A stretch of 64,000 nucleotides of DNA from Leptolyngbya sp. BL-A-14 (GCA_041937185.1 CP166621.1:2388571-2452570); one strand, 5' to 3'; shown: positions 17,671 to 50,619, numbered from the stretch's first letter. Program-made: numbers and translations. Notes: generated by a model from the letters alone, not told the origin.

Positions 17671-18972
17671 ATGACTACACCCGCGATCGCTTCGGTTCAA
17701 CCGCTTCTCCATCAAGCTGCTTCTCTCCTCGTCTATCGGTCATTGCTCAGCGATCCGATTGGACAGGCGTTTTTGGCACTGCTGCAAGCGATTCGTCACG
17801 CTGAGCGTAATACGGCTGCCGAAAATACCGAGTGTTTGCTGGCGTATGGTGATTGGTTTAGCGCGTTGGCTGAGGGGAAGCAAAGCTGGCAGGATCATCT
17901 ACTCACCCAACTGTTGCATGCGGACAATCCGTTTACCCAACAGGCACAGCACAGAGCGTTGAGTGAACTGCCTCCCGCATTGGTGGAAGCGGCTCGCCAT
18001 GATCTTCAAGTGGTGCAGCAATTGTATGCCTATGGCAGTGAGCAATTGAGCCGATCAATTAAGGTGGCGGCACATCTGGCAGTTGCTCCCGTTGTCTGGC
18101 AGTGCGAACCAATCGCAAGTTTGGAGTGGTTGCGATCGACTGTACAAGCCACAGCCAATTGGGGCGATGCATTGGAACCGTTAGCGGCCCACTATCACAA
18201 GCAGGGTGTGGGGCTATTCGCTCAATACAAAGCGTTTCGCTGGCAGGCAGGTGAATTGCGGGGCATTGCCTATCCCGATCGCGTGCAGGTTACCGATCTG
18301 GTGGGCTATGAGTCCCAAAAAGAAGCACTGCTGAAGAATACGACGTTTTTGCTCAAGGGCTACCCGGCACTGCACGTATTGCTCTACGGCAGTCGGGGTT
18401 CGGGCAAATCGTCGCTGGTGAAGGGATTGCTGCACCGCTATGGGGAGGATGGTCTGCGCCTGATTGAGGTCGCCAAAGCAGAACTAACAGAGTTGCCTGC
18501 GATCGTCGAACGGTTACGGAATCTGCCGCAGAAGTTCATTATTTTTGTCGATGATCTGTCGTTTGAGGAAGATGAGGATGCCTTTAAAGCGTTGAAGGTT
18601 GTGCTGGAGGGCAATCTAACGGCACGATCGCAAAACGTAGTGGTGTATGCCACCTCCAATCGACGGCATCTGATCCGCGAATTTTTTGGCGATCGTCCCC
18701 GTCCCAGCGATGGCGATGAAGTCCACGCCTGGGATACGGTGCAGGAGAAGCTTTCGTTTAGCGATCGCTTTGGCTTAACCCTCACCTTTGAACCCGCTGA
18801 CCAAAAAACCTATTTGCAAATCATTCACCACCTCGCCAAGCAAGCAGGAATTCAGCTTGATTCGGAGGCTCTGGAGTATCAGGCACTGCAATGGGCAACG
18901 CGACATAATGGGCGATCGGGCCGTAGCGCGAGGCAATTTATTGATTTTCTCACCGCTGAACTGGCTAGATAA
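17671..18972 (+). CDS. AAA-like ATP-binding protein, DUF815 family
   Basis: LLYGSRGSGKSS Walker A, FIIFVDDLSFEEDE Walker B, sensor NRRHLI. Confidence 0.7.
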   Translation: MTTPAIASVQPLLHQAASLLVYRSLLSDPIGQAFLALLQAIRHAERNTAAENTECLLAYGDWFSALAEGKQSWQDHLLTQLLHADNPFTQQAQHRALSELPPALVEAARHDLQVVQQLYAYGSEQLSRSIKVAAHLAVAPVVWQCEPIASLEWLRSTVQATANWGDALEPLAAHYHKQGVGLFAQYKAFRWQAGELRGIAYPDRVQVTDLVGYESQKEALLKNTTFLLKGYPALHVLLYGSRGSGKSSLVKGLLHRYGEDGLRLIEVAKAELTELPAIVERLRNLPQKFIIFVDDLSFEEDEDAFKALKVVLEGNLTARSQNVVVYATSNRRHLIREFFGDRPRPSDGDEVHAWDTVQEKLSFSDRFGLTLTFEPADQKTYLQIIHHLAKQAGIQLDSEALEYQALQWATRHNGRSGRSARQFIDFLTAELAR

Positions 18973-19755: not shown

Positions 19756-20583
19756 TTAGTCCGCCATACCAGAATCGTTAGCTTGTCTTGTCTCACATAT
19801 GGCCTCATTGCTTGTAAGATAGCCTGAATTAAAATAGTGACGCATTTCTGTACTCATATACGGTAACCAACTTACATAAGAGGTTATGTCGTCAATCATA
19901 TGAATAAATAGCCATCCTACTGTACTTTCCTGAAGAATAGAAGGGTAGAATGTTGAACCCGGAATATCGTCTCCATTGATAGTCTTGCCTGGTTGCCGCA
20001 TAAGTTTAATCATGTACTTCTTGTTGACAATTAAATTTAGCGGATAGCGATTGAGCGGAATATTAGAATTACTGTTGTAGAAGTCAGCGATGTGATTTAG
20101 GCAGGTTTCATATTGCACGCCATCATATGCAAAGATAAATAATGATGGATGTTTAGATATGAATGTATCAAACGCATTGGGTCTTAATGCTTTGAAGGTT
20201 AATACCTGAGGAGAAAACTGCGGAATACTGGCAAGGTTGCTGAGACAGTCCACAATACTTGCTTTGTCAAGAAAGCTTTTTACGGTGATTGCTGCCGCAA
20301 CGCTCTCTGCTGTAATGAAATTCCGTGCATTTTCTTCAAATCTTATTGATATATCGTTTGATACAATAATATCCATTTGCCCTGATTCTATGTCTCCAAG
20401 ACCGATAATTTGTCCTCCCAAGTAAGCGGAGAGCCTTTTGGGTAAATGCTTATGTAGAAATAATTCTAAAAACGTTTCTCTATTGAAGCCAATGTCTGGC
20501 CTATGATAACTAGTGCTAGCAAGTTGAGCATCTACGGCCATCTTGTCAGCAATTAGGTTGAAGTATCTTTGAAGCCGACTCAT
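19756..20583 (-). CDS. Hypothetical protein (AT-rich island)
   Basis: 275-aa ORF at about 38-40% GC with no overlapping competitor. No family recognised with confidence. Confidence 0.4.
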   Translation of the reverse strand: MSRLQRYFNLIADKMAVDAQLASTSYHRPDIGFNRETFLELFLHKHLPKRLSAYLGGQIIGLGDIESGQMDIIVSNDISIRFEENARNFITAESVAAAITVKSFLDKASIVDCLSNLASIPQFSPQVLTFKALRPNAFDTFISKHPSLFIFAYDGVQYETCLNHIADFYNSNSNIPLNRYPLNLIVNKKYMIKLMRQPGKTINGDDIPGSTFYPSILQESTVGWLFIHMIDDITSYVSWLPYMSTEMRHYFNSGYLTSNEAICETRQANDSGMAD

Positions 20584-27996: not shown

Positions 27997-28578
27997 ATGA
28001 GCAGCAGACGCATCGGTAACGCAGTCAGTCAGCATCAAACGCACCAATTGGGGACATTCTTGACAGTGATACAAAGCCAGCAATGGCCAGGTAAGCATGT
28101 ACTCACACGCATTCTGGTTGGAATTGCCTGGATGCTCAGCTTATGGTTCGTCAATCCCCTCCCTGTTCTAGCCGATGACTACAACCGCGAATTTTTGGTC
28201 GGAGCTGACTTTTCGAGCAAAGATTTGACTGATTCCAGTTTTACCAAAGCCAACCTCCGAGGCAGTAACTTTAGCCACAGCGACCTGCATGGCGTGAGCT
28301 TTTTTGGTGCCAACCTGGAAGGCGCAAATTTTGAGGGGGCTGATCTACACAATGCCACGCTCGATGCCGCACGGTTTACAGATGCCAACCTGACAAATGC
28401 CAATCTGGAAGGCGCGTTTGCCTTTAACGCCAAATTTGGAGGCGCGATCGTCGATGGTGCCGATTTTACAGGGGTTGATGTACGCCTCGATGCTCAGATG
28501 GCACTGTGTAAACAGGCAAAAGGTGTAAATCCAGTCACAGGACGCGAAACGCGAAAAACGCTGAACTGCAAAACTTAA
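27997..28578 (+). CDS. Pentapeptide repeat protein
   Basis: A(N/D)LxG pentapeptide repeats: ANLRGSNFSHSDLHGVSFFGANLEGANFEGADLHNATL. Confidence 0.85.
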   Translation: MSSRRIGNAVSQHQTHQLGTFLTVIQSQQWPGKHVLTRILVGIAWMLSLWFVNPLPVLADDYNREFLVGADFSSKDLTDSSFTKANLRGSNFSHSDLHGVSFFGANLEGANFEGADLHNATLDAARFTDANLTNANLEGAFAFNAKFGGAIVDGADFTGVDVRLDAQMALCKQAKGVNPVTGRETRKTLNCKT

Positions 28579-28790
28579 GACTCGTTAAGAAATGCTGTGC
28601 TTTCGTCATTAATCCCTTCTAAAGCTCTAAGCACACCAAATTTTAGAATGAGAAGGAATATTGGCGAATAAGCTGTGCGTAAGCTATGGAGATCTGTATT
28701 TTTTGTGTTGATGCATATTAGATGCGGGGAATGCTAAACAGAAGCAGACCCAAATTCTGCTTGCACTTCAAGTATTTGCAGAGGCGAGAT

Positions 28791-29654
28791 ATGGCGAAAA
28801 AAACGTACAGCAACAAAGACCGTGATCTAGACGTTTTGTTGAAAGATGTTGAGACTTGGTTTAGCGAACAAGGTTATCAGACTCAGACGAATAAGACTGA
28901 CGGAACTCGACTCTTACAAGCTGCAAAAACTGAAGCTTGGCGCAAAGCCGTAGGCGCATCTAGAGCATTTAACGTGCTAATTCAAGGACAGCCAAATGAT
29001 TTCTCAGTAGATCTCAGCACTGGAGAATGGGCATCAAACTTGACTGCTGGAGGTGTTGCAGCAGTTTTAACAGGCGGTGCTAGTTTACTGATTAGTGGCG
29101 TTGCAGCAGGTTGGTCAAAGAAGATTGAAGGCGATTTGTGGAGTTTCATTGATCAGAAAGTTATGTTCGGTGAAAAGCCTAAATCTGCTCAAGAGCTGGC
29201 TGTTATACAATCCCAAAGTAGTTTGGAAGAAAAGCTCAAACAACTCAGAGATGCTTACGACCAAGGATTCATTGATGAAATCGCATACAACGCAAAGAAG
29301 TTAGAAATTGAAGGGCAAATGCGTACTTCTAAGCAAAATGCAGGCATGGAAGAGAAGCTCATGAAACTCAAGAGCTTGCTTGATGCTGGAATTTTAAGCC
29401 AAGGTGAGTTTGAGATGAAAAAGGCTGAATTAATGCGTGAGTCATCTAACTCAGAATTAGACGCTCAAATTTCCAAACTTAACGCTGCTCTTGCTGCCGG
29501 AATCTTAAGTCAGGAAGAGTATGAAAGTAAAAAATCAGTGATCGAAAAGCAATCTGAACTCGCAGGGAAGATTAGACAACTTGAGAATGCTAGAGATTCA
29601 GGAATCATTACCCGTGAAGAGTTCGAGAAGAAGAAGCTGTCGCTACTTGTCTAA
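28791..29654 (+). CDS. Protein with four C-terminal SHOCT repeats (AT-rich island)
   Basis: Four copies of the GxIxxxEY/F..KK SHOCT signature (GFIDEIAYNAKK, GILSQGEFEMKK, GILSQEEYESKK, GIITREEFEKKK). ORF opens at 28722; M at 28791 preferred. Confidence 0.6.
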   Translation: MAKKTYSNKDRDLDVLLKDVETWFSEQGYQTQTNKTDGTRLLQAAKTEAWRKAVGASRAFNVLIQGQPNDFSVDLSTGEWASNLTAGGVAAVLTGGASLLISGVAAGWSKKIEGDLWSFIDQKVMFGEKPKSAQELAVIQSQSSLEEKLKQLRDAYDQGFIDEIAYNAKKLEIEGQMRTSKQNAGMEEKLMKLKSLLDAGILSQGEFEMKKAELMRESSNSELDAQISKLNAALAAGILSQEEYESKKSVIEKQSELAGKIRQLENARDSGIITREEFEKKKLSLLV

Positions 29655-32718: not shown

Positions 32719-35619
32719 ATGCTGACCAAACTCTGGACGTTTCTGAACACCGACATTCAGGACTTGAACTGGAAACAGGCTGGAGAGATGACCAAAACCG
32801 GAACCGATGCCGCCAAAGCGGTGTTTGACCTGGCAAAAACGGTCAAAGAGCAGCAGCCCAAAGTCGAAACCCTGAAGCCCTACATCGGGCAGATTTCCTC
32901 CTTGCTGGATGTGCTGAACGCGCCCTTTGGGCAAATTGTCAAAGACACCATTCCCTTTGCGCCCCTTGCCATCACCATTCTGAAGCTGGTGTGTGACGTT
33001 ACCCACAAGGAGCCGAGCCTAGAGCAGTGCGTTGCCCTAGTGAGTCAGGTCGCCTACCTGGAAAGTTTGCAGGTCATCCTGAAGGGAACGCCCGATCTCC
33101 TAACTCGCCTGGGTGAAGTCCCTGTCTCAGAAGCGATCGCCCTGCAAATCAGGAAGTTAGGCGACCTGGAAATCGACGATCGGGATGCTCGCAAAGCCAT
33201 CCTTTACTTTCACGAATCGAAGCTAGCGACTGCGTTTAACGAGGTTCTTAAAGCACGATTGGAGCAAGCTGGACTGGAACCAGCGGAAGCCCAAACGCTC
33301 ACCGATCGCGTGGCGCGTAAGACCGATGAATATATGCCGCCTGCATTGGCTCAGGTGGGCGACGGGGTTAAACGCTTGGTGGAGTGGTATCGCCTGGGTG
33401 GGCGCGAGGTGCTGGAAAAATATCTCAGCATCGATGATTATCTGACGCAGCAAATTCAGACGCGCCCGCTGGAAAAGGTCTTTGCGGAGAACTTCACCTT
33501 CCGCGATATCTACGTGCCGTTAAAGGCCCAGTTCATTCAGCGTAATGGGGAAGCGGACAAGGACAAAGAGCCCGTTCAGCTAGAGCAGTGGGCGAAGGAC
33601 TTGCTGAATGATGACCAGAAGCGCGATCGCGTCATGTTCATTCAGGGTGGCCCTGGACGCGGGAAAAGCGTGTTTTGCCGCATGTTTGCCGACTGGGTGC
33701 GGCAGCACGAACATCCCCGCTGGACACCCATTCTCATTCGCCTGCGCGACATCCGCACGTTAGAAAAGGACTTTGAGGAAACCCTGCGAAAAGCCGTCGA
33801 TCGCGACTTTGCCCGTAATGATCCGGGCTGGTTGACTGATCGCAACATTCGCCTTCTATTTCTGCTGGATGGCTTTGATGAACTGCTGATGGAAGGCAGA
33901 ACCAGCGGTGGGCTGGAAGAGTTTCTCAAACAGGTGGGGCGCTTTCAGGAAAGCTGCAAGGACAACGCCGAGAAGGGACATCGGGTGCTGATTACGGGGC
34001 GATCGCTCTCCCTCCAGAGCATCGAACGTCTCATGCCCGCTAACCTGGAGCGCGTCGAAATTTTACCGATGGATGACGCGCTGCAAGAACAGTGGTTTAC
34101 CCAATGGGGCAAATTGATCAACGCCGATCCAGTGCATCTCAAGGCGATTTTGCAGGATGAACGCTTACCCGATCGCGTACGAGAACTGGCGCGAGAACCG
34201 TTACTGCTTTACCTCCTTGCCGCCATGCACCGCGATGGTGAATTCAAGCTGGAGATGTTTGAAGGTGCCAGTAGCGCCCAAGCAAAGGTTCTCATTTATG
34301 AGCGCACTCTGGATTGGGTATTAAATACTCAGCGCACCGACGGGCTAAATCAGAAAATCACTGAATTCCAACCGGAAAGTCTACGCCGCATTCTGGCAGA
34401 AGCCGGATTGTGTGTTGTGCAGTCTGGTGGCGAGTACGCTCCTATCAAAATGATTGAAAACCGTTTGAAAGGAGATGAAAAAGCAAAAGAACTGCTTGAG
34501 AACGCACGAGAACGCCTTGAAGGTGATCCTGATGATCCGCTCCGTAATGCCTTAGCCGCATTTTATCTCCAGCCTGGACGTGCGGACAGCGGTTCGGTTG
34601 AATTTGCTCACAAGAGCTTTGGTGAATTTCTCTGCGCCGAACGCCTCAAGGAAGCAATACTCGACTGGACAAACCGCATTCAGGAACGTCGAGGCGAGAA
34701 AGATCAGGTTTCAACCGACAAAATGGACGGACAAATTTATGATCTTCTGGGGTACGGCGGACTAACCCCTGAGATTGTTGAGTACCTGATGGCATTATTA
34801 GACCAAAGCCCTGAATTTGATCCGGTGCGTCTGTTTCAACGACTGGAAGACTTCTATCTCCGTTGGTGCGATGGAGAATTTATTGATGCCGATCCGCCGA
34901 CGTTACCACAGCAAACGATGCGGATGCTAAAGGAGCAACTGCCCAATCGAGAGAAACCGCTAGGACAGCGACAAGTCGATGTTTACACTGGACTCAACGT
35001 GATGATTCTGCTGTTGGAATTACATCGTTATGCTCAGAAACGAGACGACTTGAAGGATCAAATCGTCTTTTATCCAAGTGGAAACGTTTCCGGGAAAGTA
35101 AGCTCCCCATTTCAATTATTGAAAGTCATTCATTACAGCGATTGCCTTGGGCTTGCAACCTTTACTGACACCACTGGCTGGTTTCTTTCCAGTGCCAACC
35201 TCTTCCGTGCTAACCTTTCCAGTGCCGACCTCTCCAGCGCTAATTTCTTCCTCGCCAACCTTTCCAGTGCCAATCTCTCCAACGCCAATCTCTCCAACGC
35301 CAATCTCTCCTACACCTACCTCTCCAGTAATCTCTCTAACGCCAATCTCTCTGGGGCTAGCCTTTTCCAAGCCTACCTTGGCACCGCTGATCTAACTCGT
35401 GCCAACCTCTTCCGTGCTAACCTTTCCAGTGCCAAATGTTTTCTCACCAATCTCTCTAGTGCTAACCTCTCCAGCACCAATCTTAGAGGGGCTGATTTAA
35501 GGTGTGCCGACCTCCAAGATATTTTCTGGGATGAGGATACGAACTGGGAGGGTGTGCAAGGGTTAGAGACAGCGGTGAATGTGCCGGAGGCGCTGAAGCG
35601 GCAGTTGGGGATGGAGTGA
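32719..35619 (+). CDS. STAND NTPase: helical N-terminal domain, NACHT core, C-terminal pentapeptide-repeat sensor
   Basis: Walker A FIQGGPGRGKSVFC, Walker B LLFLLDGFDEL, and C-terminal runs of A(N/D)LSxA pentapeptides (SANLFRANLSSADLSSANFFLANLSSANLSNANLSNANLS). Confidence 0.8.
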   Translation: MLTKLWTFLNTDIQDLNWKQAGEMTKTGTDAAKAVFDLAKTVKEQQPKVETLKPYIGQISSLLDVLNAPFGQIVKDTIPFAPLAITILKLVCDVTHKEPSLEQCVALVSQVAYLESLQVILKGTPDLLTRLGEVPVSEAIALQIRKLGDLEIDDRDARKAILYFHESKLATAFNEVLKARLEQAGLEPAEAQTLTDRVARKTDEYMPPALAQVGDGVKRLVEWYRLGGREVLEKYLSIDDYLTQQIQTRPLEKVFAENFTFRDIYVPLKAQFIQRNGEADKDKEPVQLEQWAKDLLNDDQKRDRVMFIQGGPGRGKSVFCRMFADWVRQHEHPRWTPILIRLRDIRTLEKDFEETLRKAVDRDFARNDPGWLTDRNIRLLFLLDGFDELLMEGRTSGGLEEFLKQVGRFQESCKDNAEKGHRVLITGRSLSLQSIERLMPANLERVEILPMDDALQEQWFTQWGKLINADPVHLKAILQDERLPDRVRELAREPLLLYLLAAMHRDGEFKLEMFEGASSAQAKVLIYERTLDWVLNTQRTDGLNQKITEFQPESLRRILAEAGLCVVQSGGEYAPIKMIENRLKGDEKAKELLENARERLEGDPDDPLRNALAAFYLQPGRADSGSVEFAHKSFGEFLCAERLKEAILDWTNRIQERRGEKDQVSTDKMDGQIYDLLGYGGLTPEIVEYLMALLDQSPEFDPVRLFQRLEDFYLRWCDGEFIDADPPTLPQQTMRMLKEQLPNREKPLGQRQVDVYTGLNVMILLLELHRYAQKRDDLKDQIVFYPSGNVSGKVSSPFQLLKVIHYSDCLGLATFTDTTGWFLSSANLFRANLSSADLSSANFFLANLSSANLSNANLSNANLSYTYLSSNLSNANLSGASLFQAYLGTADLTRANLFRANLSSAKCFLTNLSSANLSSTNLRGADLRCADLQDIFWDEDTNWEGVQGLETAVNVPEALKRQLGME

Positions 35620-35719
35620 GGAGCAGAAGTCAGAGCTTAGGAGTCAGAAGCAGGGGAGGCAGAGGGAGCGGGGGAAGATGCGGGGGAAGGAAGAAATGAA
35701 AATTAACTGATGAAGGTTG

Positions 35720-36088
35720 TCAAGAGCGGGTACCGTCTTCACCATCGAATTCTGCAATGACGGCTCTGATTTCTGCTGCTGCAACATCCACTTGGTCAGA
35801 TTTTGAGTAAATCAGCAGTAGCAAGACATTGGATGGTGATTCAACCTGATACAGCAGTCGATAACCTGCACTTGTGCCTTTCTGAATATCACTGTTTTTG
35901 ATCCGAACTTTGAATACGGTGTATCCAGTTCCAGGTATGCGATCGCCAGGAAAATTTCCAGTTTCAAGCTGTTGAATCACAGGTTGAATATCGGTTTGAA
36001 TCTGACGGTAGCGTTTAGCTAAAGCACGAACCTGCCGCAGAAAGTCATCGGTAAAACGAACCTGCACAGTTGGTTGGTCATTCGGCAT
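35720..36088 (-). CDS. RelE/ParE-family type II toxin
   Basis: GYTVFKVRIKN...SAGYRLLY...LLLLIYSKSDQ matches the RelE/ParE fold consensus. Start placed at MPNDQ; ORF opens at 36139. Confidence 0.65.
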   Translation of the reverse strand: MPNDQPTVQVRFTDDFLRQVRALAKRYRQIQTDIQPVIQQLETGNFPGDRIPGTGYTVFKVRIKNSDIQKGTSAGYRLLYQVESPSNVLLLLIYSKSDQVDVAAAEIRAVIAEFDGEDGTRS

Positions 36089-36323
36089 CAACGCTGTTCC
36101 ACAACTCTGAGACAGGACGAGTTCTACCAGCTTTGGCATCCTGCAAAGATTGACGTAAGCTCTCTAATATTTTCGCTTTCGGTTCATCGTCCTCATCCTG
36201 CTCGACGCTATCAGGAACCAACACAATCACCTCAACTCGGCTGTTCTGGTCAACCATTAACGGCGTATCTAACGCCAACTGTCCCTGCTGATCAACCGTT
36301 GCCATCACTTTAATCGCTTTCAT
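36078..36323 (-). CDS. Cognate antitoxin (AbrB/MazE-like N-terminus)
   Basis: 81-aa acidic protein immediately upstream of, and overlapping, the toxin. C-terminal ...AKAGRTRPVSELW resembles antitoxin tails. Confidence 0.55.
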   Translation of the reverse strand: MKAIKVMATVDQQGQLALDTPLMVDQNSRVEVIVLVPDSVEQDEDDEPKAKILESLRQSLQDAKAGRTRPVSELWNSVDAE

Positions 36324-47316: not shown

Positions 47317-47538
47317 ATGCAACAGGTTAATCTCAAGGACGCTGCCACTCAATTAGCGGATCTTGTTGAAGCAGCAGCCAGCGGCGAGGACGTTGTGATT
47401 ACCCGCAGCGATGGTGCATCATTCCAAATTGTTCCACTTGCAAAGCCTCGCCCCAAGTTTGGCAGTGCAAAAGGCTTGGTGAGCATATCTGAGGACTTTG
47501 ATGCGCCTTTAGAAGCTTTTGAGGACTATGCTCCATGA
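47317..47538 (+). CDS. vapB: Type II antitoxin (Phd/YefM- or VapB-like)
   Basis: 73-aa protein; 4-nt overlap with the downstream PIN-domain gene. Confidence 0.7.
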   Translation: MQQVNLKDAATQLADLVEAAASGEDVVITRSDGASFQIVPLAKPRPKFGSAKGLVSISEDFDAPLEAFEDYAP

Positions 47539-47921
47539 AACTTCTGCTCGATACCCATACGTTTCTGTGGTTTATCGAGGGTAGCTCTAATCTGAGTAAT
47601 ACAGCAAGAAGCTTGATTGAGGATGCAAAAAATCAGCGCTTTCTAAGTGTCGCCAGCCTTTGGGAGATGTCAATCAAGGTCAGCATGAGTAAGCTGATGC
47701 TCCAGATGTCATTCACTGATCTGGTGACCCAACAAGTCTACGGTAATGCGATCAATCTGCTTGAAATTCGAGCAGAGCATCTAGATGAGTTAGCAAAAAT
47801 GCCATTCCACCACAAAGATCCATTTGACCGACTGATCGTTGCTCAAAGCATCGTGGACAACATGGCTGTGTTATCGAAGGACAGTGCATTTGGAAGCTAT
47901 CCAGTAACGTTATTATGGTGA
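47535..47921 (+). CDS. vapC: VapC PIN-domain ribonuclease toxin
   Basis: LLLDTHTFLW (Asp1 region) ... SLWEMSIK ... PFDRLIVAQS conserved acidic residues of the PIN fold. Confidence 0.8.
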   Translation: MKLLLDTHTFLWFIEGSSNLSNTARSLIEDAKNQRFLSVASLWEMSIKVSMSKLMLQMSFTDLVTQQVYGNAINLLEIRAEHLDELAKMPFHHKDPFDRLIVAQSIVDNMAVLSKDSAFGSYPVTLLW

Positions 47922-48001: not shown

Positions 48002-48598
48002 TCAAAAGTAATCATTGATTGGATTTTTCTTCGCCCAAGATGCTACAGCACGTTCTACATCGTCTAAATTACCATCGACACCACGAATCCAGTGCTTGTA
48101 TTCATCACTGGGCAAACAAGAAGCAGCATAAATAAAAGCACGACGAATCCATGGAGTCATTTGGTTAAGGGATAATTTTCGACTGCGAAACCAAAAATCT
48201 TTCTTGCTTCGCCCCATAGCCAACAAAATTTCCCGCTTTGAGAAATCATCATCGAGCGCGTCATTATAAAGCTTGACATATTGGTCTTTTGAATTCCACT
48301 CTATATCTAATGCAAATGGTCTCAATAAATACATTCGGGAGTATTCGAGATGTGATGCAGTTGAAGTCTCATCCTTGTAAAAGCGGATGAGATCTTTACC
48401 AAGCAAAGACTTATCTGCAGGTGATAATGTGTCAAGTCTGAGCAAGTATTCAATGGTTTCACGTATTACTGGAACAAATTTACTGAAGTTATCAAAGATG
48501 GAGTCAAGTACAGCCGTATCACTAAGCTGCCCCAATCGTCGTAACAAAAACTTCAATAAGGAAAGATCTGGTTCTTCTTCTTCAATCTGCTCGTATAG
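48002..48598 (-). pseudogene. C-terminal helical-repeat portion of a defence-type reverse transcriptase gene, separated from its 5' part by the IS630 insertion
   Basis: The frame LYEQIEEEEPDLSLLKFLLRR... continues exactly from the sequence upstream of the IS once the IS and one TA copy are removed. The apparent ATG at 48613 lies inside the IS terminal repeat. Confidence 0.7.
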
Positions 48599-48615
48599 TA
48601 CAGCGTGTTGCATAA

Positions 48616-49221
48616 CTAATTGGTACAGTAACAGCAGTGAGCAAAGTAGTTTCGCAAGTCCCTACTCGAACAGAGGCTAACGCCCAGTTGTAATAGCTTT
48701 GTAATGGTTTCTACACTCTTCGGTACAAACCGCCGGATAAACGACTTCAACTGCCACCACAGGTGTTCAATCGGGTTGAACTCAGGTGAGTACGGCGATA
48801 AGTAAACAACCCTGGCTCCGACCGCTTCGATCATCTGCTCTATCCCTTCAACTTTATGGGCTTTGAGGTTATCCATCACCACCACTGCCCCCGGCCACAA
48901 CTTCGGGACGAGACGTGCGGACACAAACTGTTTGAAGTCTTCTCCTGTCATCGATTTGCCCAACGTTTGCATCGCCAGGATGGCGGTTTGACTAATCGCC
49001 CCAACGACGGTGATCCGGCGACCGCGGTAGAAGGGTTTGAGGTCATACACTCGTTGTCCCTTACAACTTCTTCCCCTGGTCTGCTTAACCCTTGCAGCAC
49101 TCCCATCTCGTCCAGGAAGACTAAATTTTCTGGCAGAACCGTACTGATCGTCCGCCAGTAGGCAACTCGTTGTGCTTGCTTATCCGCTGCTGCGGCTTGA
49201 GCACTGCGACAGGTTTTTTTT
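48616..49221 (-). CDS. IS630 transposase, DDE catalytic part (-1 frame; reached by programmed frameshift)
   Basis: LVFLDEMGV, DNLKAHK and SPYSPEFNPIEHLW DDE motifs. The frame stays open upstream of the first ATG back to the A8 run (49214-49221). Confidence 0.8.
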
Positions 49222-49560
49222 AACCGTTAACTGCTGTTTTTGCAAGAATCGGCACATCGTACTTTCACTCACACTCACCCCGGTTTTGTCTTGCCAATAC
49301 TCGCAATACTCTGCCAATGTATAGTCCTGGTGTGTCTCAACCATCTCTGCGATGTTCTGTTCATAGCCTGCCAGTTGGCTTGCCTTACCGCCTGTTGCTG
49401 GAGCAGGCTTCAGTGTTCCTGTGGCTTGCTTGCGCTTGAGCAACGACTGAACCGTATTTTTGCTGACCTGAAATCTCTCTGCTACCTTCCGAATCGAAGT
49501 ATTGCCTGTCTCATAGGTACTGATAATTTTTTCGCGTAGGTCGAGGGAGTAGGGCTTCAT
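49180..49560 (-). CDS. IS630 transposase, N-terminal HTH part (orfA)
   Basis: Helix-turn-helix region REKIISTYETGNTSIRKVAERFQVSKNTV, ending just after the A AAA AAA AC slippery run. Confidence 0.8.
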   Translation of the reverse strand: MKPYSLDLREKIISTYETGNTSIRKVAERFQVSKNTVQSLLKRKQATGTLKPAPATGGKASQLAGYEQNIAEMVETHQDYTLAEYCEYWQDKTGVSVSESTMCRFLQKQQLTVKKNLSQCSSRSSG

Positions 49561-49617
49561 AGCTATCCAAGTGGAAGACTCTCTCTATTGTGCCAAACCG
49601 TCGTGCAAAACGCTGTA

Positions 49618-50619
49618 TATTTTCAAGGTTTAACTCGTCGATTGCCTTCTGGTATTCAGGCGATAGAGCATCATAATCAATTTCCTTGTAAGTGTCCTCA
49701 ATATCCATCTCAGCGAGTAAATCATAAAAGCATAAAAGCGCTCAGACAAAGTTTCAAGTTCTCGCTTCTCATTTTCTTTAAGATAAATTCTTCGGAAAAC
49801 ATCTACCGAAACAATTTTTGTCTTGTTTTGCTGAAGTGTAAGTCCATGGTTATCGAGTAAAGAACGTGCAATGAGCGTAAGATATTTGTAAGCTTCAGCC
49901 TCAGAGTCACAAAAAATTCTGAAGTCGTCTGAGTAGCGAACGTATTTCGCATCTTCCGAAAGCAAGATCTGGTCAATATCAGAAATAGTTACTTCAGCAA
50001 TTAATCGCGAAGCCGCAGAACCGACAGGTATCCCGTACGAGTATGAACCTGCCCAGTGAGCAATTAAGTTCTTCAAAGCCTTTGCATGCATATGACCAAC
50101 ACCCAAAGCACTGTCCATAGCATTGTCAATGCGATGTGTATAAAGCCTTGGGAAAAAGTCTGCAATATCTGCAATCACAACATAGGACGAGTCATACTTC
50201 TCACATGCATCGTGTGAAGCCTTCTGAAAGCTTCGATATGTATACTGATCAGAGAACATCCGTCCATCACTGTTTGGGGAAAACCTATAAGAATGAACAA
50301 TATTTTCAATTGTTGAAATCCTTTCTGATTCCAGTTTTTCACCAATCTCCTTAATAAGTGCTGTAAATACTAAGAAATCGAGTGGATCAAGTTGTGTAGA
50401 AATGCGGAAGCCGAAGCGGTGCTTTGGAACTAAACGCCGCCTAAATGGTCTTACCTTCCACGCTAATATGTCAGCCTCTTGAATTGATGCTTTAATTTTA
50501 TTCCAGTTATCTTCAATTGCATGAAATTCAAAAATATCAGGAAATATATCAGTATCGCCTGATGTAAGAGCATGCTTCAAAGCCCAATTCAAAGAAGAGT
50601 CCGTAAGTGTTAACGGCAT
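49618..50619 (-). pseudogene. Reverse transcriptase (Abi/UG-class, defence-associated type), N-terminal RT domain; frameshifted and interrupted by IS630
   Basis: RT motifs SYVVIADIADFFPRLYTH (motif A), GIPVGSAASRLIAEV (motif B) and YVRYSDDFRIF (motif C, YxDD). A 1-nt frame change near 49709-49745 moves to the frame ...MDIEDTYKEIDYDALSPEYQKAIDELNLENI, which crosses the IS boundary. Confidence 0.75.

Follow-up and report, generated by a model that had tools for sequence, protein, structure and literature searches.

We propose that a gene of Leptolyngbya sp. BL-A-14, a member of the Leptolyngbyaceae, encodes a stand-alone, single-gene NLR-like molecular switch that probably serves in conflict or defence. 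The gene lies within the 64,000-nucleotide stretch of DNA analysed here (CP166621.1:2388571-2452570; the window), and its 966-residue product, read from its sequence, is a genuine NACHT-clade STAND NTPase that joins an N-terminal helical domain, NNH3, to a NACHT nucleotide-binding domain and this in turn, through helices and a winged helix, to a C-terminal pentapeptide-repeat beta-helix. We regard it as very probably a clade-9-type NACHT NTPase in the scheme of Kibby et al. ('Bacterial NLR-related proteins protect against phage', bioRxiv 10.1101/2022.07.19.500537), an assignment that rests on an identical architecture and on the NNH3 model, the clade itself being defined by phylogeny of the NACHT module. 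The proposal builds directly on the domain identities, the intact NTPase and winged-helix motifs, the NLR-like fold, the pattern of variable repeats and the lack of a conserved partner gene. The reading frame is complete from an ATG at 32719, where the homologue alignments also begin, at residue 1, and at 100% identity the product matches a protein in NCBI that is titled 'NACHT domain-containing NTPase [Leptolyngbya sp. BL-A-14]'.

The NACHT core that the original prediction had described is intact. The Pfam NACHT match reaches 40.6 bits (cut-off 26.7) and covers profile positions 1-163 of 167, and the Walker A (GGPGRGKS) and Walker B (LLDGFDEL) motifs, read directly, follow the NACHT forms GxxxxGK[ST] and hhhhD[GAS]hDE, the latter with its extra acidic residues. 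Beyond them lie a sensor-1 motif, ITGR, and an NLR-type winged-helix histidine motif, EFAHKSFGEF (Table 1). In an alignment of 60 homologues the residues that define each motif are invariant (G313, G315, K316 and S317 in Walker A; D384, G385, D387 and E388 in Walker B; T426, G427 and R428 in sensor-1; F629, H631, K632, S633, F634 and E636 in the winged helix), and the catalytic and regulatory motifs are mostly retained in 41 more distant NNH3 representatives. An AlphaFold2 model of the entire protein (predicted local distance difference test, pLDDT, 80.6; predicted template modelling score, pTM, 0.69) has four parts: it starts all-helical, continues through an alpha/beta nucleotide-binding domain into a region of helices with a winged helix, and from there leads to a beta-helix. 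A Foldseek search with this model returned NLRP3, NLRC4 and NOD2 at E 3e-10 to 1e-9 with probability 1.0, the alignments extending across the region made up of helical domain 1 (HD1), the winged-helix domain (WHD) and helical domain 2 (HD2), residues 466-810. A family profile searched against the PDB matched pentapeptide proteins only, down to E 3e-60, and no NACHT chain at E<=0.01.

The N-terminal 260-300 residues are all-helical in two AlphaFold2 models, and Pfam finds no enzymatic effector domain; the NLR-like three-part layout proposed from the sequence is upheld. The same region, which had been left without a recognisable identity, does have one: residues 50-261 match Pfam NNH3 at E 5.4e-61 over profile positions 2-213 of 213 and are modelled as an all-alpha bundle of about 13 helices, and this domain is specific to NACHT proteins and not of a housekeeping kind. 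Upstream of the Pfam boundary, residues 1-16 carry a family-wide motif, M-x-x-[RK]-[LI]-W-x-F-L-[NT]-T-D-I-x-[ED]-L, in which W6 is kept in 49/60, F8 in 55/60, D12 in 54/60 and L16 in 53/60 homologues; with a pLDDT of about 50 this segment is predicted to be flexible. A transmembrane or pore-forming segment was considered and rejected, the Kyte-Doolittle maximum being 1.5 (19-residue window, residues 82-86), under the usual threshold. Lenient Pfam scans of the HD2 region and of the C-terminal tail added nothing.

Pentapeptide array and NNH3 family

The C-terminal array was correctly anticipated as a run of A(N/D)LSx pentapeptides. It comprises about 22 units between residues ~823 and 932 with one register break near residues 866-872, matches Pfam Pentapeptide at E 3.4e-17 and is modelled as a beta-helix with one strand per five residues; in the DNA it appears as a degenerate 15-nt tandem periodicity at 35185-35435. 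Several open reading frames (ORFs) of 50-85 residues overlap the array on both strands at 35116-35395, antisense or in other frames; these are not genes, being artefacts of the 15-nt repeat periodicity. A DNA-mimic function of the repeats was also considered and rejected, as they carry a net charge of 0 in this protein and of between -20 and +9 in the family as a whole, and are not consistently acidic.

A region-wise comparison with the eight closest homologues (76-85% identical overall) separates the array from the rest of the protein. Identity is 87-92% in NNH3, 92-97% in the nucleotide-binding domain, 78-89% in HD1 and the winged helix and 60-81% in HD2, and it falls to 32-53%, with 5-50 gap positions, in the array, where alignment ambiguity lowers it in part, before returning to 80-93% in the 34-residue C-terminal tail. 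In the 60 homologues the repeat region is between 91 and 236 residues long, with length steps mostly of five, while the remainder of the protein measures 778-847 residues and the nucleotide-binding domain retains a mean identity of 77% over many genera. The tail follows the consensus (I/F)xWDExTxWExVxGLETAxNVPEALKxQLG, with W943, P956 and L959 invariant in the same alignment. The array, presumed to be the sensor, is thus the fastest-evolving part of the protein, and variable repeats beside a conserved NNH3 and nucleotide-binding domain fit a fast-evolving sensor mounted on a conserved switch and output. Such a predicted joining of variable sensor to conserved switch and output fits the classic NLR pattern.

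The protein belongs to a large family. A search of 5.8 billion proteins gave at least 1,225 homologues at E<=1e-5 among the candidates scored, and the best 120 all reach E = 0 at 50-83% identity and almost all have the order NNH3-NACHT-Pentapeptide. The named members of these 120 are cyanobacteria, nearly all filamentous, from genera that include Leptolyngbya, Tildeniella, Stenomitos, Microcoleus, Tychonema, Fischerella, Calothrix and Symploca. An exhaustive HMMER search with the N-terminal 264 residues detected NNH3 in only 211 clusters (50% identity) out of 1.84 billion, and in all of these a NACHT protein begins, or nearly begins, with the domain. Among 41 full-length representatives NNH3 is present in 41/41, Pentapeptide in 40/41 and NACHT in 38/41, with tetratricopeptide repeats (TPRs) added in six. 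Ten shorter or atypical members all have NACHT or the start of a STAND domain and are fragment-like, with the exception of P0260, in which a PNP_UDP_1 phosphorylase is fused upstream of a partial NNH3 that is followed by NACHT. Two long members hold stretches with no assigned domain between NNH3 and NACHT, of about 680 residues in P0196 (1879 residues) and about 430 in P0200 (1666 residues). A phage-borne origin of the family was considered and rejected, an IMG/VR scan with the family alignment giving one pentapeptide-only match and no family homologue.

Kibby et al. list the combination NNH3, NACHT and Pentapeptide as their NACHT clade 9, with entries in Table S1 from Nostoc, Anabaena, Leptolyngbya and other cyanobacteria. 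The table also holds a sister set, NNH4+NACHT+Pentapeptide, from Vibrio, Nitrospirae and Bacteroidetes, together with the variants EAD10+NNH3+NACHT+Pentapeptide, a form with a REC domain downstream, and NNH4+NACHT+Ntox49. The pentapeptide sensor, which had been taken for an uncommon variant, is therefore the rule across the NNH3 family and a defining feature of a catalogued clade. The gene itself adds little to this picture, as NCBI already has it, Pfam has its N-terminal domain and Kibby et al. have tabulated its architecture. The family is nevertheless worth experiments for its size and its restriction to mostly filamentous cyanobacteria, because it couples a switch and an N-terminal domain under strong purifying selection to fast-changing repeats, and because NNH3 lacks a structural relative; to learn the ligand of the beta-helix and the function of NNH3 would close a gap in the understanding of bacterial NLR-like proteins and of cyanobacterial immunity.

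Proposed mechanism and its alternatives

At rest, the NACHT module would be locked in a closed, ADP-bound form by the histidine of the winged helix and by the repeat domain at the C-terminus. The fast-evolving pentapeptide beta-helix, acting with HD2 and the conserved cap at the C-terminus, would bind a ligand and so release this lock, and nucleotide exchange would then drive oligomerisation of the NACHT module. Oligomerisation would in turn cluster the conserved NNH3 domains and so produce the output. We infer the ligand, the oligomerisation, the NNH3 output and the defence role by analogy with solved NLRs and with tested bacterial NACHT proteins from other clades. A role in defence or conflict appears reasonably probable, and its most likely form is either anti-phage action or programmed cell death in a multicellular filament.

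A number of observations weigh against this model and are gathered here. NNH3 and the nucleotide-binding domain are strongly conserved, the low identity of the repeats owes something to alignment ambiguity, and repeats that stay near an idealised consensus with no consistent net charge argue against a simple DNA-mimic bait. The surroundings in the window are mostly housekeeping (dnaG, nadC, argS, ftsH, murD and queA), and the guanine-cytosine (GC) content around the gene is unremarkable. In Tildeniella nuda the dnaG-NACHT-relNE order is kept and the NACHT protein (80.5% identical) is about as conserved as DnaG (76%), with RelE at 85% and RelN at 83%, which points to vertical inheritance under purifying selection and not to an arms-race gene. 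PADLOC gave no match at E<=0.01 for the NACHT protein, for the two toxin-antitoxin genes beside it or for four neighbours. We found no functional test of any NNH3 or clade-9 member in the literature, and none of the clade-9 entries examined in Table S1 carries a bNACHT tag. Finally, NNH3 has no fold relative among solved structures, so that its output is a guess.

The alternative that survives best, unlikely in our estimate, is a conserved, non-immune signalling ATPase of filamentous cyanobacteria, which might work in stress signalling, differentiation or developmental cell death, in which the pentapeptide domain would bind an endogenous partner as HetL-type proteins do. It can call on the 87-97% identity of NNH3 and the nucleotide-binding domain in close relatives, the latter still averaging 77% across the 60 homologues, on a fixed architecture whose effectors are not swapped, on the housekeeping flanks and the dnaG synteny kept in Tildeniella, on the lack of a PADLOC match and of family homologues on viral contigs, on named homologues that are almost exclusively from filamentous cyanobacteria, and on HetL as the best NCBIfam match of the repeats, far below cut-off though it is. 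Against it stand the fast change of the array in length and sequence and the differing chromosomal positions of the gene between genera, often beside toxin-antitoxin, HEPN_AbiU2, DUF559 or STAND genes; some relatives, moreover, are fused to the conflict-type modules EAD10 or PNP_UDP_1, with Ntox49 found in the sister NNH4 group, and all other bacterial NACHT clades with experimental data are anti-phage. We favour defence because the sensor varies, the chromosomal position is scattered, neighbours include toxin-antitoxin, Abi and nuclease genes, and relatives carry EAD10, PNP_UDP_1 or Ntox49.

Within a defence role, the assignment of any specific output to NNH3 is doubtful. One improbable form of it makes NNH3 a new executioner domain, whose N-terminal motif and helical bundle would be released on oligomerisation to attack the membrane or an essential target, much as the helix at the N-terminus does in the coiled-coil NLR resistosomes of plants, or as fungal HeLo domains do, and in which the beta-helix would be a rapidly diversifying bait for phage proteins. 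The absence of a solved-fold relative and of partner genes, the conserved N-terminal motif and the variable sensor are all compatible with an executioner; nothing supports it directly, and the hydropathy peak reaches 1.5 only. Were it true, clade-9 proteins would be resistosome-like single-chain immune receptors with a new type of sensor and a new effector fold.

Very unlikely is the original suggestion that NNH3 is an EAD-like adaptor, recruiting a separately encoded effector by homotypic interaction. NNH3 does lack a catalytic signature and a fold relative, and Kibby et al. recognise an 'adaptor' class among bacterial NACHT N-terminal domains. Pfam searches with hidden Markov models matched NNH3, NACHT and Pentapeptide in the protein; a scan of residues 1-300 at E<=10 yielded only NNH3 and one chance match, and neither an EAD nor a Death-like model. 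In a Symploca relative (Table S1) NNH3 is preceded by a true EAD10 in the same protein, which makes the two distinct modules. Furthermore, no NNH3-effector protein lacking NACHT was found among the 211 clusters, including the ten short or atypical members scanned, no neighbour is conserved across eleven genomic contexts, and the 64-kb window holds no second copy of NNH3 or of NACHT.

Gene neighbourhood and other features of the window

Upstream of the gene the window contains ftsH, murD, queA, a secreted pentapeptide protein, a SHOCT protein, dnaG and a small secreted protein, and downstream relNE, a small membrane protein, nadC, a C39-like peptidase and argS. A probable RelE/ParE-type toxin and its antitoxin lie immediately 3' on the opposite strand, as the original prediction stated, and the toxin gene converges with the NACHT gene across 100 bp (35620-35719). 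The antitoxin, with 120.5 bits and E 3.3e-35, exceeds the RelN cut-off of 70 bits. The match of the toxin ORF, which at its longest spans 35720..36139, is marginal for ParE_toxin (24.2 bits against a gathering score of 23) and below threshold for TIGR02385 RelE_StbE (25.6 against 27.9) and Pfam RelE (21.2 against 27). Translation probably begins at M18 (36088), in which case the toxin and antitoxin genes overlap by 11 nt; a 122-residue toxin gene call with the same overlap is present at the Tildeniella locus L008. A Rfam scan of the window gave no match, and promoter and terminator counts in the flanks were no higher than in shuffled sequence, with no terminator in the convergent gap.

Eleven contexts of family members were compared, those of four close relatives coming from a single-protein contig search and the more distant ones from contigs encoding homologues. 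No operon partner is conserved across them, of a non-defence kind or otherwise, and the neighbours are often toxin-antitoxin or defence-type genes. In Stenomitos rutilans (L004) relNE directly adjoins the NACHT gene, and in Tildeniella nuda (L003/L008) four extra small genes, among them a HigBA-like pair, stand between the two. Two 78%-identical relatives, L001 and L002, have no relNE within 4-8 kb, and in one of these the NACHT gene is preceded by ParAB and followed by a convergent HEPN_AbiU2 gene. The 3' flank of one relative holds HicAB, DUF433/PIN-like and DUF6883/DUF4926 genes, that of another HicB-like and VapC genes, and in another a DUF559 endonuclease follows the NACHT gene; the remaining contexts have metabolic genes only nearby, or lie close to other STAND genes. 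Toxin-antitoxin modules of differing families thus stand directly 3' in 5/11 contexts. Judged by these gene contents, the gene tends to sit at a variable, toxin-antitoxin-accreting spot and is not part of a multi-gene system, and the RelE/RelN pair is an independent toxin-antitoxin module in the same spot, a neighbour and not a component of the NACHT system.

That the NACHT protein and RelE/RelN form one system, with the toxin as effector or the pair as regulator, is highly improbable: relE/relN lie near the gene in three genomes (the window, S. rutilans L004 and T. nuda L003/L008) and some toxin-antitoxin module directly 3' in five of the eleven contexts, whereas the convergent orientation rules out co-transcription, four small genes intervene in Tildeniella, the 78% relatives lack relNE, other sites have HicAB, DUF433/PIN-like, VapBC, HigBA-like genes or none, and RelNE is by its NCBIfam assignment a self-contained type II module.

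Three relatives carry two or three different toxin-antitoxin pairs 3' of the NACHT gene, with HicAB, DUF433/PIN-like and DUF6883/DUF4926 at L005 (10936-12760), HigBA-like and RelNE pairs at L008 (11019-13054), and HicB-like and VapC genes at L009 (11040-12520). These runs suggest a toxin-antitoxin accretion hotspot beside this gene family.

Elsewhere in the window a defence-associated DRT8 reverse transcriptase gene is split into two ORFs, which match PADLOC Drt8 over profile positions 2-283 of 493 (E 2e-109) and 310-492 (E 1e-41). An IS630-family transposase occupies the gap of about 1 kb between the halves, and the gene looks inactivated because of this insertion; GC content of the region is low, 0.43-0.45. 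A Phd/YefM-like antitoxin gene and a PIN-domain toxin gene, overlapping by 4 nt, adjoin the disrupted DRT8 and make up with it a small islet of defence and toxin-antitoxin genes, which lies about 12 kb away from the NACHT gene. A DUF6602 protein (275 residues) within a low-GC patch (0.42-0.45) matches PADLOC PD-(D/E)xK at E 1e-18 and a NucC-like nuclease at E 3e-9 and may be another acquired defence-type gene; a DUF815 AAA ATPase gene is situated about 0.8 kb upstream of it. Upstream of dnaG lie a 193-residue pentapeptide-repeat protein, possibly lumenal or periplasmic, which has a hydrophobic segment at its N-terminus and is the sole other pentapeptide match in the window, and a 310-residue protein with three SHOCT repeats and a GvpG-like segment.

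Table 1. Positions of the features described, numbered from the first nucleotide of the window.
Feature	Position	Strand	Residues	Basis or remark
NNH3-NACHT-pentapeptide gene	32719..35619	+	966 aa	complete ATG ORF
N-terminal motif	32719..32766	+	1-16	column counts, 60 homologues
NNH3 domain	32866..33501	+	50-261	Pfam PF22735, 'NACHT N-terminal helical domain 3'
NACHT nucleotide-binding domain	33628..34107	+	304-463	Pfam PF05729
Walker A, GGPGRGKS	33646-33669	+	310-317	sequence reading
Walker B, LLDGFDEL	33862-33885	+	382-389	sequence reading
Sensor-1, ITGR		+	425-428	sequence reading
HD1-WHD-HD2 region	34114..35148	+	466-810	model secondary structure, Foldseek
Winged-helix histidine motif, EFAHKSFGEF	34600-34629	+	628-637	sequence reading
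Pentapeptide-repeat beta-helix, ~22 repeats	35185..35514	+	823-932	Pfam Pentapeptide, PDB profile matches, model
Conserved C-terminal tail	35515..35619	+	933-966	homologue identity
RelE/ParE-family toxin	35720..36088	-	122 aa	from M18; longest ORF to 36139
RelN-family antitoxin	36078..36323	-	81 aa	NCBIfam NF050107
DUF815 AAA ATPase	17671-18972	+
DUF6602 protein	19756-20583	-	275 aa	PADLOC
Pentapeptide-repeat protein	27997-28578	+	193 aa
SHOCT and GvpG-like protein	28722-29654	+	310 aa
Phd/YefM-like antitoxin and PIN-domain toxin	47317-47921	+	73 aa; 128 aa
Split DRT8 reverse transcriptase	48002-50619	-		two ORFs
DRT8 ORF, profile positions 310-492	48002-48613			PADLOC Drt8
Transposase segment	48616-49050			DDE_3
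Transposase segment	49180-49560			HTH_Tnp_IS630
DRT8 ORF, profile positions 2-283	49630-50619			PADLOC Drt8

Comparison with known systems

Clade 9 of Kibby et al. offers the closest comparison, for in Table S1 its domain order, boundaries and host group are identical to those of the BL-A-14 protein, the Nostoc, Anabaena and Leptolyngbya entries placing NNH3 at about 1-248, NACHT at about 265-730 and the pentapeptides after about 825; the BL-A-14 protein lacks the extra EAD10, REC or TPR modules of some members. Membership of a bNACHT or AVAST-like system, as originally predicted, is not borne out by the models available, since no PADLOC model matches and the HyoA NACHT antiphage model NF058534 scores 17.3 bits against a cut-off of 1200. 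Avs proteins combine a TPR-like sensor with an N-terminal enzymatic effector, in contrast to the pentapeptide array and non-enzymatic N-terminus found here, and PADLOC gives no Avs match. With the validated single-gene bNACHT proteins (bNACHT01, of clade 14, and other enterobacterial examples) the BL-A-14 protein shares a stand-alone NACHT switch with intact Walker motifs, and some members of both groups have no enzymatic effector; the validated proteins, however, belong to different NACHT clades, bNACHT01 has a short C-terminal extension in place of repeats, and the PADLOC bNACHT models miss the BL-A-14 protein. According to Kibby et al., single genes from other bacterial NACHT clades confer protection against phage.

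The neighbouring pair resembles the RelNE type II system in having an antitoxin above the RelN cut-off, the antitoxin gene first and an 11-nt gene overlap; the toxin is probably RelE/ParE-like, its match being marginal, and the activity of the pair is predicted.

The C-terminal 110 residues form the same right-handed quadrilateral beta-helix as Np275/Np276, All3740, Rfr32 and HetL, with profile matches of E 1e-33 to 1e-39 to 2j8k and 3du1 and agreement from Foldseek. In those proteins the beta-helix stands alone, whereas in the BL-A-14 protein it is attached to a STAND NTPase, and the array falls far under the NCBIfam cut-offs of the HetL and Alr5209 families.

Finally, the animal NLRs NLRP3, NLRC4 and NOD2, although just 12-15% identical in sequence, share with the BL-A-14 protein the nucleotide-binding, HD1, winged-helix and HD2 fold and the FxHxSFxEF winged-helix histidine motif. 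The sensor differs, being leucine-rich repeats in the animal proteins and a pentapeptide beta-helix here, as does the output domain, which is PYD or CARD in the former and NNH3 in the latter, while the layout of N-terminal output, central switch and C-terminal repeat sensor is the same in both.

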